Counted from the stretch's first letter, positions 32,907 through 37,221 are shown. The stretch is 64,000 bases of DNA from Escherichia coli (GCF_030013595.1 NZ_CP122768.1), one strand, 5' to 3'. Notes: generated from the letters alone by a model not told the origin. A program made the numbers and translations.

Positions 32907-33328
32907 TTCCTAGAACGACATTTTAAGTCAACAACTTACCGCGCCATCTCTGCGCTCACACGTCCCACTACCTCAAAACATGTAAAGCCTTGCAAGCCAT
33001 TGTGAGGCCTTATGTGTCTCAGTTTTGTCCCTCTTTTTTGTACCAAAAAACATAGCAATTGAGGATAAACCTCATGCTATTTTCGCTTATATGCCTCTAA
33101 AGGCATGGCGCTTAAATAGATAAAAACACCACAAAAGCATAAAAAACCACACAGTAAAACCGCAACATAAAACAATAACAGATAATTAAACCAAAAACAG
33201 ATAGCGCATTGTGATAATCATTCAATACTAAACAAAATATAAACAGTGGAGCAATATGTAATTGACTCATTAAGTTAGATATAAAAAATACATATTCAAT
33301 CATTAAAACGATTGAATGGAGAACTTTT

Positions 33329-34282
33329 ATGCGGGCGAAACTTCTGGGAATAGTCCTGACAACCCCTATTGCGATCAGCTCTTTTGCTTCTACCGAGACT
33401 TTATCGTTTACTCCTGACAACATAAATGCGGACATTAGTCTTGGAACTCTGAGCGGAAAAACAAAAGAGCGTGTTTATCTAGCCGAAGAAGGAGGCCGAA
33501 AAGTCAGTCAACTCGACTGGAAATTCAATAACGCTGCAATTATTAAAGGTGCAATTAATTGGGATTTGATGCCCCAGATATCTATCGGGGCTGCTGGCTG
33601 GACAACTCTCGGCAGCCGAGGTGGCAATATGGTCGATCAGGACTGGATGGATTCCAGTAACCCCGGAACCTGGACGGATGAAAGTAGACACCCTGATACA
33701 CAACTCAATTATGCCAACGAATTTGATCTGAATATCAAAGGCTGGCTCCTCAACGAACCCAATTACCGCCTGGGACTCATGGCCGGATATCAGGAAAGCC
33801 GTTATAGCTTTACAGCCAGAGGTGGTTCCTATATCTACAGTTCTGAGGAGGGATTCAGAGATGATATCGGCTCCTTCCCGAATGGAGAAAGAGCAATCGG
33901 CTACAAACAACGTTTTAAAATGCCCTACATTGGCTTGACTGGAAGTTATCGTTATGAAGATTTTGAGCTAGGTGGCACATTTAAATACAGCGGCTGGGTG
34001 GAAGCATCTGATAACGATGAGCACTATGACCCAGGAAAAAGAATCACTTATCGCAGTAAAGTCAAAGACCAAAATTACTATTCTGTTGCAGTCAATGCAG
34101 GTTATTACGTAACACCTAACGCAAAAGTTTATGTTGAAGGCGCATGGAATCGGGTTACGAATAAAAAAGGTAATACTTCACTTTATGATCACAATGATAA
34201 CACTTCAGACTACAGCAAAAATGGTGCAGGCATAGAAAACTATAACTTCATCACTACTGCTGGTCTTAAGTACACCTTTTAA
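33329..34282 (+). CDS. ompT: Outer-membrane protease VII (omptin family)
   Basis: 317-aa ORF MRAKLLGIVLTTPIAISSFASTETLSFTPDNINADISLGTLSGKTKERVYLAEEGGRKVSQLDW... Confidence 0.95.
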   Translation: MRAKLLGIVLTTPIAISSFASTETLSFTPDNINADISLGTLSGKTKERVYLAEEGGRKVSQLDWKFNNAAIIKGAINWDLMPQISIGAAGWTTLGSRGGNMVDQDWMDSSNPGTWTDESRHPDTQLNYANEFDLNIKGWLLNEPNYRLGLMAGYQESRYSFTARGGSYIYSSEEGFRDDIGSFPNGERAIGYKQRFKMPYIGLTGSYRYEDFELGGTFKYSGWVEASDNDEHYDPGKRITYRSKVKDQNYYSVAVNAGYYVTPNAKVYVEGAWNRVTNKKGNTSLYDHNDNTSDYSKNGAGIENYNFITTAGLKYTF

Positions 34283-34468
34283 CGAAGTTAACCAGATTTT
34301 CTCCCCGGTGGTATTGTATAACCCCGGGGAATTTGTTTACAGTTACAAGTAGACAATATCCACTAATTTTGTAAGCATTTAACCTATGTCATAACGTGTA
34401 ATCTCTTACCGCAACACAAGACCTCAATATATTCAAATTTTATCTTTATTCCGATATTCAGAGACACA

Positions 34469-35953
34469 ATGCGAAAAATAATTACTCATTTCAAAGTTGT
34501 TTTAACGTTACTTCTACCAGTAACCGTATCTGCCCAGCAGATACAGTGGCAATCCTGTATGGCCAGTCAATTCAACCACTGGTTTGGTGAGGAAAAACCG
34601 TCTCCTGACTTACTATGTGGTTATTTGTCTGTTCCATTAAAATATACAGACACAGGCGGAGATGCTTCTTATGAAAAAAAATCACAAGTCAAACTAGCGT
34701 TGACAAAATTGCCGGCAAAAAGCAAGCATAAAGGAAGTATCCTGATAATAAGTGGTGGTCCCGGGTTACCAGGCATAAATCCTTATATTAACTTTGACTG
34801 GCCAGTCACAAATCTTCGTGAGTCATGGGATATTATTGGATTTGATCCTCGAGGCGTCGGACAGTCCACTCCGACAATAAACTGCCGGCAATCAGATACA
34901 GAGACTCAGGAAAACATAACCGAAAAGCAACAAGTATTAAATAAAATTAATGCCTGTATCCATAATACCGGAGCCGAAGTCATTCGCCATATCGGCTCTA
35001 ACGAGGCTGTATACGATATTGATCGTATTAGGCAAGCCTTGGGGGATAAACAACTGACAGCCGTGGCGTATTCGTATGGAACTCAAATTGCAGCCTTATA
35101 TGCAGAACGTTTTCCCTACAACGTAAGATCTATCGTTCTTGATGGAGTCGTCGATATCGATGACCTGGAGGACAACTTCACATGGCAACTCAAACAGGCA
35201 CAGAGTTATCAGGAAACGTTTGATCGCTTTGCATCCTGGTGTGCGCGTACAAAAAGTTGCCCGCTTTCTTCAGACAGAGATAAGGCAATAACTCACTTCC
35301 ATGAGCTATTATCAAAATTACATCACAAACCTTTATTAGACAGTAAGGGAGAAAATATATCTTCAGGTGAACTCATATCATTAACAACAGACCTTCTGCT
35401 ATGGCGTTCATCATGGCCAACCCTTGCAACTGCCATACGCCAGTTCTCTCAGGGGATTGTCAGTAATGAAATTGAAACTGCGCTCAGTGCTCCGATAGCC
35501 TCAGAAGAGTCAAGCGATGCTTCGGGGGTAATCCTCTGTGTAGATCAGGGGGATGAGCAATTAACACCAGAAGAGCGAAAATCCCGAAAAGACGCTCTTG
35601 CGAATGCCTTCCCGGCTATTAACTTTGACAATGGACGTTCCGATTCACCTGATTTTTGTGAATTATGGCCAATACATAGCGACCTGAACAAAACTCGCCT
35701 GAAAAATACTGTTCTGCCCTCTGGTTTACTGTTTGTAGCACACAAATACGACCCAACAACGCCCTGGATTAATGCCCGTAAGATGGCAGAGAAATTTTCC
35801 AGCCCGTTACTAACAATAAATGGTGATGGGCATACATTAGCTCTCACCGGAGTTAATTTATGTGTAGATAAAGCAGTTGTACATCACCTGATCACTCCAC
35901 AAAAAATAGAAAATATATACTGCCCAGGAAATTCTGAAGCAGAAATACAATAA
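34469..35953 (+). CDS. Secreted alpha/beta-hydrolase, S33 (tripeptidyl-aminopeptidase-like) family; prophage cargo
   Basis: 494-aa ORF with N-terminal signal peptide (MRKIITHFKVVLTLLLPVTVSA), nucleophile elbow AYSYGT, AT-rich codon usage. Family call is from motifs only. Confidence 0.6.
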   Translation: MRKIITHFKVVLTLLLPVTVSAQQIQWQSCMASQFNHWFGEEKPSPDLLCGYLSVPLKYTDTGGDASYEKKSQVKLALTKLPAKSKHKGSILIISGGPGLPGINPYINFDWPVTNLRESWDIIGFDPRGVGQSTPTINCRQSDTETQENITEKQQVLNKINACIHNTGAEVIRHIGSNEAVYDIDRIRQALGDKQLTAVAYSYGTQIAALYAERFPYNVRSIVLDGVVDIDDLEDNFTWQLKQAQSYQETFDRFASWCARTKSCPLSSDRDKAITHFHELLSKLHHKPLLDSKGENISSGELISLTTDLLLWRSSWPTLATAIRQFSQGIVSNEIETALSAPIASEESSDASGVILCVDQGDEQLTPEERKSRKDALANAFPAINFDNGRSDSPDFCELWPIHSDLNKTRLKNTVLPSGLLFVAHKYDPTTPWINARKMAEKFSSPLLTINGDGHTLALTGVNLCVDKAVVHHLITPQKIENIYCPGNSEAEIQ

Positions 35954-35975
35954 TTTCAAAATATTCCGCTATTTG

Positions 35976-36020
35976 CTCCCAATGCAAAACATATATTGCA
36001 TTGGGAGCATATTCATATTT
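35976..36020 (+). terminator. Intrinsic terminator after the hydrolase gene
   Basis: Inverted repeat ctcccaatgca / tgcattgggag with 10-nt loop, followed by catattcatattttt. Confidence 0.6.
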
Positions 36021-36136
36021 TTGTTATTCTTGTATGAAATCGTCTCATGTACACGGTCCTTTTTTCGCCGAAAACTGATATTACTTTAATCAAAAGTTGA
36101 CGTGCCAGATTCGAAGTAAATTTATAAAATATCAAA

Positions 36137-36442
36137 TCAATATACATTTTGCACCTTCGAGATAGTAATGGCTGTTACTGTAACATGGGTTACAAACAGC
36201 TTCATACCCAGAGCTACTGATGTATCAACACGATTCAACAATACCCGATATTTATTCCATGCCTCCAGCAACGATCTTTCTTCCTCCGTTGCGATTTCCA
36301 GATCTACAGCATCCTGCAGTGGCGCAATATACTCACTGAATTCCTGGATGTAGAACTGTGTGGTGACGGTCTTCCAGCCATTCGGCTCCTGCTGTATCGA
36401 AGCATACCAGGCTATTTCAATATCGCTATGCTGCGGCAGCAT
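36137..36442 (-). pseudogene. tfaX: Tail fibre assembly protein fragment (Tfa C-terminal region fused to unrelated sequence)
   Basis: 101-aa ORF; residues ...[39 protein letters not shown] match the C-terminal conserved block of the full Tfa at 37222..37806; the rest does not. Confidence 0.6.
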
Positions 36443-36498
36443 TTAACCCCTTGTAATTCATCGCCATAATTGATTTAATTCACAAATAAAACTATAAC

Positions 36499-37167
36499 AT
36501 GGTGAAATTAATGAAAAAAAACACAGATGATGGGGCTAAAATTTACACACCACTTACCCTAAAGCTTTATGACTGGTGGGTTTTGGGAGTATCAAATCGG
36601 CTTGCATGGGGATGTCCTACAAAGGAACACCTTCTTCCACACTTTCTGGAACATTTAGGTAACAACCATCTGGATATTGGTGTTGGAACTGGGTTTTACC
36701 TTACTCACGTACCTGAGAGTAGTCTGATATCTTTAATGGATTTGAACGAAGCTAGCCTGAACGCGGCATCTACAAGGGCTGGGGAATCAAAAATTAAACA
36801 TAAAATTAGCCATGATGTTTTTGAACCTTATCCCGCGGCGTTACATGGTCAATTTGATTCCATTTCCATGTTTTACCTTCTTCACTGCCTGCCTGGAAAT
36901 ATATCTACAAAAAGCTGTGTAATACGCAATGCGGCGCAGGCCTTAACTGACGATGGAACTCTATACGGAGCCACAATTCTTGGCGATGGAGTTGTGCACA
37001 ATAGCTTCGGTCAAAAACTGATGCGCATTTACAATCAGAAAGGCATCTTTTCAAACACAAAAGATTCCGAAGAAGGCTTAACACATATACTCTCAGAGCA
37101 TTTCGAGAATGTTAAAACCAAGGTTCAAGGTACTGTAGTAATGTTTTCCGCTTCAGGGAAAAAATAG
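36499..37167 (+). CDS. ybcY: Class I SAM-dependent methyltransferase (YbcY-like prophage cargo)
   Basis: 222-aa ORF with motif DIGVGTGF (SAM-binding motif I); encoded opposite to the flanking tail-fibre genes; start codon uncertain. Confidence 0.65.
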   Translation: MVKLMKKNTDDGAKIYTPLTLKLYDWWVLGVSNRLAWGCPTKEHLLPHFLEHLGNNHLDIGVGTGFYLTHVPESSLISLMDLNEASLNAASTRAGESKIKHKISHDVFEPYPAALHGQFDSISMFYLLHCLPGNISTKSCVIRNAAQALTDDGTLYGATILGDGVVHNSFGQKLMRIYNQKGIFSNTKDSEEGLTHILSEHFENVKTKVQGTVVMFSASGKK

Positions 37168-37221
37168 CATCCAACCGCAGCACGTTCTTGCTTAAGACGT
37201 GCTGCGGCATAATCCCAATGA

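Follow-up and report, generated by a model that had tools for sequence, protein, structure and literature searches.

One question raised by the Escherichia coli sequence NZ_CP122768.1 (GCF_030013595.1) is what the AT-rich DNA represents that separates a prophage attachment core from the tail-fibre genes. The window analyzed here, i.e. the whole stretch of 64,000 nucleotides, carries at positions 33000-37200 an island with the gene ompT, a hydrolase gene, a fragment of the tail-fibre assembly gene tfa (here called tfa') and a methyltransferase (MT) gene. The first-pass annotation, made from the sequence alone, had described these genes as lying on alternating strands, and exactly this gene content was recovered, with the tfa fragment on the minus strand and the three other genes on the plus strand. 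Our data strongly favor the view that the island is the non-essential, b-region-type accessory end of a lambda-like phage of the DLP12 lineage that integrated at the 3' end of argU. The zone that follows tfa, the final gene of the late operon, and precedes attP would be a place where DNA can be added, swapped or lost within the packaging limit without breaking a phage operon. Its cargo would form a row of self-contained, moron-type cassettes: ompT with its PhoP-box region and terminator, the hydrolase gene with its terminator, and the hairpin-ended MT gene.

The location of the island is defined by an unoccupied attachment site. In this empty-site locus (L004), envY, tRNA-Arg and fimZ follow each other in direct succession, and the identity with the window ends at 32909. 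The 50 bp ending at this position are also found at the intact argU beside int in two further loci, L003 and L009, and phage 2G7b has them at its attP. Since the identity with the empty site stops there and the 50 bp recur at argU, we regard this segment as the attR core and the DNA from 32910 rightward as prophage. The attachment core proposed earlier is therefore real: it is common to argU, and the empty-site strain joins envY directly to argU and lacks the island, as expected of a phage accessory region. In the near-identical genome of STEC435, a lambdoid prophage of about 46 kb extends from this end via J, head, lysis and the immunity region to intD-argU, and the intact argU by intD at its far end, outside the window, provides the second copy of the core. 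Since the core is duplicated and the insertion lies at the 3' end of argU, the element belongs to the DLP12-type prophages. ARAGORN called no tRNA in the window, and the core was located via the empty-site comparison instead. A sub-threshold match to the tRNA model (32873-32956, minus strand, 24.8 bits, model positions 9-63) extends past the core into phage DNA, hence the phage appears to supply a tRNA-like 5' part; in the record of phage Kati, the corresponding position is labelled as an 84-nt 'tRNA-Pro'. The adjacent phage-side arm of the attachment site is conserved (about 99% identity) in phages 2G7b and PhiR26_1, where it adjoins the core and int, and would be expected to bind Int and IHF. 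The copies of the ompT unit in O157 and on the plasmid lack this arm; their homology begins at 33216 and 33211, respectively.

The same DNA is carried by sequenced phages with genomes of 45-48 kb. Phage 2G7b shows the order J, lom, tail fibre genes, MT, tfa', hydrolase, ompT, core and int, and matches 32860-37341 at 99.4%, while 32856-37991 is matched by PhiR26_1 at 98.9%. The island had been described as lying between the attachment core and the tail-fibre genes, and this placement holds also in free phages, which carry it between the tail-fibre genes and attP-int. This is the position of the lambdoid b region, between the last tail-fibre gene and attP and, in the prophage, just inside attR. 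The hydrolase is encoded at an identity of at least 99% in 11 phage records, GenBank/RefSeq duplicates included (2G7b, ev243, Turner and the PhiR series), whereas OmpT is present at at least 99% in 13 and the MT in 15 E. coli phage records. The content varies among the sequenced phages: Kati and PhiR68_2 hold ompT and MT and are absent among the hydrolase matches. A literature search for phages 2G7b and ev243 returned nothing relevant. Among 5426 complete E. coli genomes, the 5.4-kb region is matched over at least 80% of its length in 1148, or about one in five.

Two well-studied relatives allow a direct comparison. The b region (b2) of lambda with ea47, ea31 and ea59 lies in the same place, after tfa and before the attP core and int. 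Measured alike, the guanine-plus-cytosine (GC) content is 0.36 in the lambda b region (5.2 kb from the tfa stop to the attP core), 0.489 in lambda tfa and 0.573 in the tail genes H-J, which parallels the profile of the window with 0.41 in the island, 0.49 in tfa and 0.56-0.58 in the tail genes. However, the genes of the lambda region are unrelated, lambda integrates at attB-lambda rather than argU, and most of the cargo in the window is, unlike that of lambda, transcribed away from the late operon, each gene with its own terminator. The right end of DLP12 in K-12 (ompT, appY, tfaX, ybcY and tfaD, with attR at the argU copy) shares the attachment site and the flanking genes nfrA-ybcH-envY with our sequence. 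A K-12-like locus (L002) is 97.8% identical over 31800-34332 and 97.0% over 36213-37660, and ompT, tfaX, ybcY and tfaD are 97-98% identical. In K-12, however, the MT gene is frameshifted, tfaX is interrupted by a stop codon, and a deletion has removed the tail and head genes that the window still has.

The base composition sets the island apart from its surroundings. Its GC content is 0.408. The window as a whole has 0.525, the left flank 0.523, the right flank 0.546 and the adjacent structural genes 0.55-0.60. The value of the island is the lowest among all 4.2-kb segments of the 64 kb, and none of 2000 shuffles of 100-bp blocks gave a segment that low (permuted minimum 0.496, standard deviation 0.006). 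GC at third codon positions (GC3) amounts to 0.41 in ompT, 0.35 in the hydrolase gene and 0.36 in the MT gene, compared with 0.46-0.69 in the host genes of the window and 0.62-0.67 in the tail and head genes, and the rare codons AGA, AGG, ATA and CTA occur 3-5 times per 100 codons in the cargo genes versus 1-1.7 times elsewhere. The AT-richness noticed in the first-pass annotation is thus confirmed, and the significant drop relative to the flanks, on which that claim depended, is seen in both GC and GC3. As part of the preferred explanation, the low GC would mark the cargo as foreign to host and phage alike. Two more specific statements of the annotation held only in part. Regarding the long A/T runs noted at 33100-33300, this segment contains 51% A and about 40 A/T tracts of at least 4 nt per kb, approximately four times as many as the flanks, but the tracts are short, the longest homopolymer having 6 nt. 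Similarly, the proposed contrast with a GC-rich late operon beginning at tfa is correct insofar as the island is the outlier, but the GC content climbs gradually. It is intermediate in tfa (0.49) and in the distal, receptor-binding half of the side tail fibre gene stf (37807-39700; 0.487), is about 0.60 in the proximal, Ala/Ser-rich half, and exceeds 0.6 only from about 39750. In a two-change-point fit, the zone of low GC extends from 31901 to 39710. Its shoulders are formed by the host-side envY (GC 0.458) and the tail-fibre tip, and the GC content is lowest in a core at about 32910-37207. The coordinates of the main features are collected in Table 1.

Table 1. Features and sequence joints in the island, its flanks and the host part of the window. 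Positions are counted from the first nucleotide of the window; dG, folding free energy; E, E-value; ORF, open reading frame; CDS, coding sequence.
Feature	Positions	Strand	Remarks
attR core	32860-32909	-	copy of the 3' part of tRNA-Arg (argU); host/prophage junction; from empty-site comparison
Phage-side att arm (b-region side of attP)	32910-33210	.	A-rich, dense short A-tracts, GC 0.385; from phage comparison
ompT cassette	33211-34335	+	unit edges from homology and hairpin
PhoP box upstream of ompT	33229-33245	-	exact TGTTTA-N5-TGTTTA
Promoter-like site of ompT	33262-33289		consensus-level; within ompT cassette
ompT CDS	33329-34282	+	Pfam Omptin, E 2.8e-130; NCBIfam omptin subfamily
Hairpin after ompT	34302-34335		dG -19.5 kcal/mol, z -2.8; tail UUUGUUU
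Hydrolase cassette	34336-36037	+	secreted alpha/beta hydrolase, Hip1/CaeA (TAP-like) family
Hydrolase CDS	34469-35953	+	494 aa; Pfam Abhydrolase_1 (PF00561, E 4.9e-32) and TAP-like Abhydrolase_4 (PF08386, E 1.7e-14)
Hairpin after hydrolase gene	35974-36009		dG -24.3 kcal/mol, z -6.6; T-rich tail on plus strand
tfa' remnant	36137-36442	-	101-aa ORF; Pfam Caudo_TAP, E 8.9e-18; phrog_2341 full length, E 5e-56
MT cassette (ybcY homologue)	36443-37207	+	promoter-like site 36443-36470, consensus-level; hairpin shared with convergent tfa
MT CDS	36499-37167	+	class I S-adenosylmethionine (SAM) methyltransferase domains, several Methyltransf families; phrog_2132, function unknown
Hairpin between MT and tfa (convergent)	37175-37207		dG -23.9 kcal/mol, z -6.4; no T-run here
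tfa (tail fibre assembly protein)	37222-37806	-	intact, last late-operon gene; Pfam Caudo_TAP, E 9.6e-44; GC 0.49
stf (side tail fibre)	37806-41174	-	1122 aa; Pfam phage_tail_N, Gp34_trimer, Collar, Phage_fiber
Joint	32909		host/phage junction
Joint	33211-33216		left edge of ompT unit; O157:H7 prophage near minCDE and iro plasmid
Joint	34332		start of K-12 appY cassette, at end of ompT hairpin
Joint	34439 to 36416		DNA between (34440-36415) deleted in ST95-like remnant L003
Joint	36037		right edge of omptin-hydrolase pair on plasmid, just past hydrolase hairpin
Joint	36211-36219		ISEc8 insertion in O157
Joint	36213-36218		end of appY cassette; left edge of tfa'-MT-tfa unit in ompW-site prophages
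Joint	37207/37213		extra DNA carried by other genomes (Kati, O20:H12, O157)
Joint	37341		2G7b changes to different tail-fibre module
sok (Rfam)	11246-11400	-	
ES036 (CssrF) (Rfam)	8912-8953	+	

Lambdoid morons, such as lom and bor in lambda, are autonomous promoter-gene-terminator units that are expressed from the prophage. The units of the island are likewise discrete and hairpin-ended, their GC content is unlike that of their neighbors, and mosaic joints coincide with unit edges. Terminator-type hairpins were found at the end of all three units, whereas the promoters reach consensus level only. Unlike morons that slipped singly between late genes, the units of the window are stacked at the genome end, and lom of the same prophage is not AT-rich (0.557). 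We assume that the cassettes would be active while the prophage is repressed, without depending on the late operon of the phage, and would act as lysogenic-conversion genes. A possible regulatory input is given by the PhoP box upstream of ompT, because the exact motif (consensus from PMC5913352) occurs only twice in the 64 kb compared with 0.03 expected matches, and its reverse orientation is that published for the E. coli ompT promoter (PMC2681069). The only other exact box (62562-62578, plus strand, TGTTTAGGGTTTGTTTA) is situated just upstream of the estimated start of bor, in a second AT-rich patch of the same prophage. This patch (61000-63000, GC 0.39-0.40) separates the small terminase gene from the lysis genes and, by synteny with STEC435, comprises ylcI, ybcW, ybcV and bor. 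Judged from these motifs, both moron clusters, the ompT end and the bor patch, appear to be wired to PhoPQ. An ORF of 107 aa (33112-33435, minus strand) was dropped as a gene; it overlaps the ompT promoter region.

The low GC content might also explain how such cargo is kept silent, since AT-rich DNA would be a target of H-NS, while host regulators such as PhoP would switch on specific genes. The island is AT-rich in the way expected of H-NS-silenced xenogeneic DNA. Published chromatin immunoprecipitation (ChIP) data for K-12 are positive at the homologous intergenic regions: tfaX/appY, appY/ompT and ompT/envY were H-NS-bound in all three compiled data sets and have been scored as associated with horizontally acquired genes (PMC3661553). 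AppY, a product of the DLP12 prophage, is itself encoded by a gene whose expression reportedly depends on H-NS among other regulators (PMC10057817). Of the three regions only ompT/envY is shared in full with the window, and because it is 97.8% identical to K-12, H-NS binding between envY and ompT can reasonably be expected in this strain, too.

The history of the island can be read from its joints, which were obtained from pairwise blastn of the window versus about a dozen related loci. Discrete, recurrent joints were found at cassette edges; the hairpin ends at 34335, 36009 and 37207 compare with breakpoints at 34332, 36037 and 37207/37213, and the homology to K-12 stops at the end of the ompT hairpin. 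K-12 carries an appY cassette (1.5 kb, GC 0.289) in place of the hydrolase cassette (34333-36212). Both alleles of this middle slot occur in sequenced phages, with the appY cassette in Kati and PhiR68_2, and Kati and K-12 share 99.4% identity across 4 kb that include appY. Among the complete E. coli genomes, the hydrolase cassette is present in 1249 (about 23%), O157:H7 included, and the appY cassette in 837. Altogether, at least six alternative architectures with discrete joints exist in the same 4 kb, which directly attests to recurrent gain, loss and replacement of DNA there and supports the earlier suggestion of repeated cargo acquisition at the prophage end. Turnover would proceed by homologous recombination among co-resident lambdoid prophages at shared flanks (the tfa 3' end, ompT and att/int), which would move blocks, by illegitimate joints at cassette edges, which would add or remove units, and by insertion of IS elements.

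One of these architectures points to a different source of cargo. At the MT/tfa joint, O20:H12 and O157(:H7) carry a block of yciG-yciF-yciE and a Mn-catalase gene, which shows 74% nucleotide and 80-93% amino acid identity to the chromosomal yciGFE operon. In other strains, chromosomal yciGFE neighbors an ompW-site prophage bearing the same tfa'-MT-tfa unit, at a distance of no more than about 1 kb from the prophage end (loci compared: L005 11900-14113, L006 6667-8880 and L007 2865-4182). From these similarities the block looks like chromosomal genes captured into phage cargo, although a single simple imprecise excision was rejected as its source, because the gene order does not fit. It is conceivable that the cargo in general was captured in a specialised-transduction-like manner, i.e. 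from the chromosome beside former integration sites by imprecise prophage excision, and did not arrive as free-standing cassettes; the yciGFE-catalase block demonstrates that chromosomal operons end up in this region. We nevertheless consider such an origin rather improbable for the island. The block is not in this window and its position between MT and tfa is not that of simple excision, no chromosomal, non-mobile source was found for ompT-hydrolase or MT, whose relatives reside on phages, plasmids and scattered enterobacterial contigs, and about 300 bp of phage att arm lie between ompT and the core.

The right part of the island bears traces of tail-fibre exchange. A duplicated Tfa segment had already been noticed, and it proved to be a direct repeat of 132 nt with 87% identity (36218-36349 versus 37267-37398). 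Codons 1-77 of tfa' match an 88-aa phage ORF family (phrog_2341), while a different sequence of 11 residues takes over from the joint at 36218 to the C-terminus. The ORF is intact with 88 aa and a normal Tfa C-terminus in the ompW-site prophage L007, interrupted by a stop in K-12 and frameshifted in 2G7b; the NCBI annotation pipeline (PGAP) labels tfa' a pseudogene. The block 36218-38003, which comprises tfa', MT, tfa and the stf tip, is 98% identical in ompW-site prophages. Because these genes are common to prophages at a different attachment site, the MT seems to travel with host-range tail-fibre modules. Accepting the b-region interpretation, tfa' would be the mark of an earlier tail-fibre module, the tfa'-MT-tfa-stf tip would move as one unit between prophages at different attachment sites, and the conserved 3' sequence of tfa could plausibly serve such exchanges as an anchor of homology. 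Alternatively, the Tfa duplication might be the relic of an invertible tail-fibre segment, a host-range switch of the Gin/Pin/Cin type, instead of a scar of module replacement. Phage Kati indeed has a DNA invertase gene exactly between MT and tfa (L019 9582-10172, joint at window position 37207/37243), which suggests that some phages of this group switch tail-fibre tips by inversion, and invertase-driven tail-fibre switching has been described for lambdoid phages (PMC12315714). For the window, such an origin is unlikely, because the ORFs in 32.9-41.2 kb all belong to families other than invertases or recombinases, no long inverted repeats bracket tfa and tfa', the two copies are direct, and tfa' sits beyond the unrelated MT gene.

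The two tfa copies also gave matches to an RNA family. The Rfam model IS009 (RF02111), cited in papers as a phage-associated small RNA, matches the 3' coding part of tfa (37265-37463, minus strand, 225.7 bits) and, in full length, the tfa' remnant (36216-36419, minus strand, 108.4 bits, just below the gathering score of 117). Both matches are inside and in frame with their ORFs, and 9 of the 17 differences between the copies fall on codon position 3; the IS009 family may represent conserved coding sequence rather than an RNA gene. Regarding the MT, translation probably starts at ATG 36511 rather than 36499, because GGTGA is found 5 nt upstream, the PHROG profile begins at residue 5, and most homologues have 218 aa. 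Homologues with 56-90% identity occur across the Enterobacteriaceae. Searches in PDB and NCBIfam yielded no specific function and no match to a DNA-methyltransferase family; in PDB, only weak matches (E about 1e-3) to UbiG and juvenile-hormone acid methyltransferases, i.e. small-molecule O-methyltransferases, were obtained. A further ORF of 45 aa (37112-37249, minus strand) was dropped as a gene, having no protein-family match.

The state of the prophage bears on the meaning of its base composition. The gene for the large terminase subunit looks split (58245-60170, minus strand) into two ORFs of 185 and 442 aa and is annotated as frameshifted in STEC435, hence the prophage of the window is probably defective despite its near-complete gene set. 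Together with the degeneration of tfa' in several lineages, this could be taken to mean that the low GC content does not indicate foreign origin, but that the end of a cryptic prophage is decaying here as selection is relaxed and mutation is AT-biased. The ratio of nonsynonymous to synonymous substitutions (dN/dS) makes such decay very unlikely. Between phage and diverged plasmid copies it amounts to 0.07-0.17 in the omptin and to 0.13-0.14 in the hydrolase, and the MT gives 0.08 when measured versus the ST95-like chromosomal copy; since the three genes are also intact, we regard them as working genes under purifying selection. Moreover, the same composition (0.41) is found in phage genomes deposited as complete, the plasmid paralogues have 0.42, and the lambda b region is even lower. 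The notion that the island is host DNA of the envY-ompT neighborhood merely abutting the prophage, for which the low GC of envY and a trough beginning at about 31900 could be quoted, is refuted, because the empty-site strain keeps envY without anything from 32910 on and phage genomes contain the island. The gene envY (32055-32816), on the host side of attR, encodes an AraC-family regulator like appY. It is missing from the ST95-like locus L003, where ybcH runs straight into the att region and ompT, and may represent an older acquisition at the same hotspot. Elsewhere in the host part, far from the island, Rfam matches at gathering level were obtained for the sok antitoxin RNA (hok/sok-type) and ES036 (CssrF).

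The hydrolase cassette deserves a closer look. The encoded protein carries an N-terminal signal sequence and combines an Abhydrolase_1 core and a TAP-like C-terminal domain with Ser-Asp-His motifs, i.e. the characters of the Hip1/TAP-like family. The motifs YSYG (201-204, Ser), YDPTTP (427-432, Asp) and GDGHT (452-456, His) align with GYSYGT, HDPATP and GTQHT of Hip1 from M. tuberculosis, whose structure (7sfm) is matched over the full length (E 5.3e-51). We therefore predict a Hip1-like secreted serine hydrolase. Domains, motifs, signal sequence and full-length homology are shared with M. tuberculosis Hip1 (Rv2224c, CaeA) and the TAP-like hydrolases of Streptomyces; unlike Hip1, the hydrolase of the window is phage- or plasmid-encoded in a Gram-negative host and linked to an omptin gene. 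Its relatives are scattered: those from Budvicia, Salmonella, Serratia and Providencia are about 50% identical, those from Nocardia and Mycobacterium 30-36%. The omptin-hydrolase pair recurs on plasmids: an iro plasmid shows 92% nucleotide identity over 33211-36037, the F-type plasmid F128 has an OmpP-type omptin followed by a hydrolase with 78% amino acid identity, and a plasmid-like contig encodes omptin and hydrolase with 70% and 76% identity, respectively, and has kept the intergenic hairpin (pair at L012 4778-7598, L013 4961-7500 and L020 2962-5500). The F-type variant is present in about 170 E. coli plasmid records. Among the homologues with about 50% identity on Salmonella and Serratia plasmids the adjacency to an omptin gene is gone, hence only the phage and plasmid lineages of E. 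coli show the linkage. Because F plasmids hold the pair at 70-78% protein identity, omptin and hydrolase probably entered the phage together, and appY would have replaced the hydrolase in K-12 later. It is tempting, as a tentative proposal, to view the two genes as a conserved envelope-protease module that shuttles among lambdoid phages, F-type plasmids and the iro plasmid. If so, the hydrolase would partner the omptin, for example by trimming peptides from host antimicrobial peptides cleaved by OmpT, or it could modulate host responses as Hip1 does, and K-12 with appY instead of the hydrolase would have hidden this partnership from study. The omptin literature consulted covers only OmpT, OmpP and ArlC (PMC10088187), and a literature search for an E. 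coli Hip1-like protein found no relevant paper on the hydrolase.

Some observations weigh against the interpretation of the island as a b region stocked with independent, silenced, foreign cassettes. The scan for sigma-70 promoters returned 9 promoter-like sites in the region compared with 12.8 in shuffled sequence, and only consensus-level promoter sites are proposed. The MT/tfa hairpin is not followed by a T-run in this window, while T-runs do trail it in O20:H12 and phage Kati. Allowing up to two mismatches, the H-NS consensus TCGATAAATT gave 6 matches in the island, corresponding to 1.4 per kb versus 0.67 per kb overall; this roughly twofold enrichment is too weak, and the motif count was rejected as evidence. 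A donor organism was found for none of the cassettes, and the proposed order of events, in which the hydrolase preceded appY, is the most parsimonious one in view of the paralogous pair on plasmids.

Collectively, the island is an already known kind of feature in an already known place, namely the b-region or moron end of a DLP12-type argU prophage. It exemplifies the well-understood principle that temperate phages keep a non-essential zone on the attP side, which gathers AT-rich, self-contained genes of host benefit that H-NS would silence and that would come under the control of PhoP or other host regulators. Such a zone supplies E. coli with OmpT, a protease relevant to antimicrobial-peptide resistance and familiar from protein-expression work. 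The comparison also implies that the textbook arrangement ompT-appY of K-12 is one of several alleles, among which the hydrolase allele is commoner and is also that of O157:H7. New work would be worthwhile only on the Hip1-like hydrolase, which is still uncharacterised, and on why its gene stays linked to that of an omptin.

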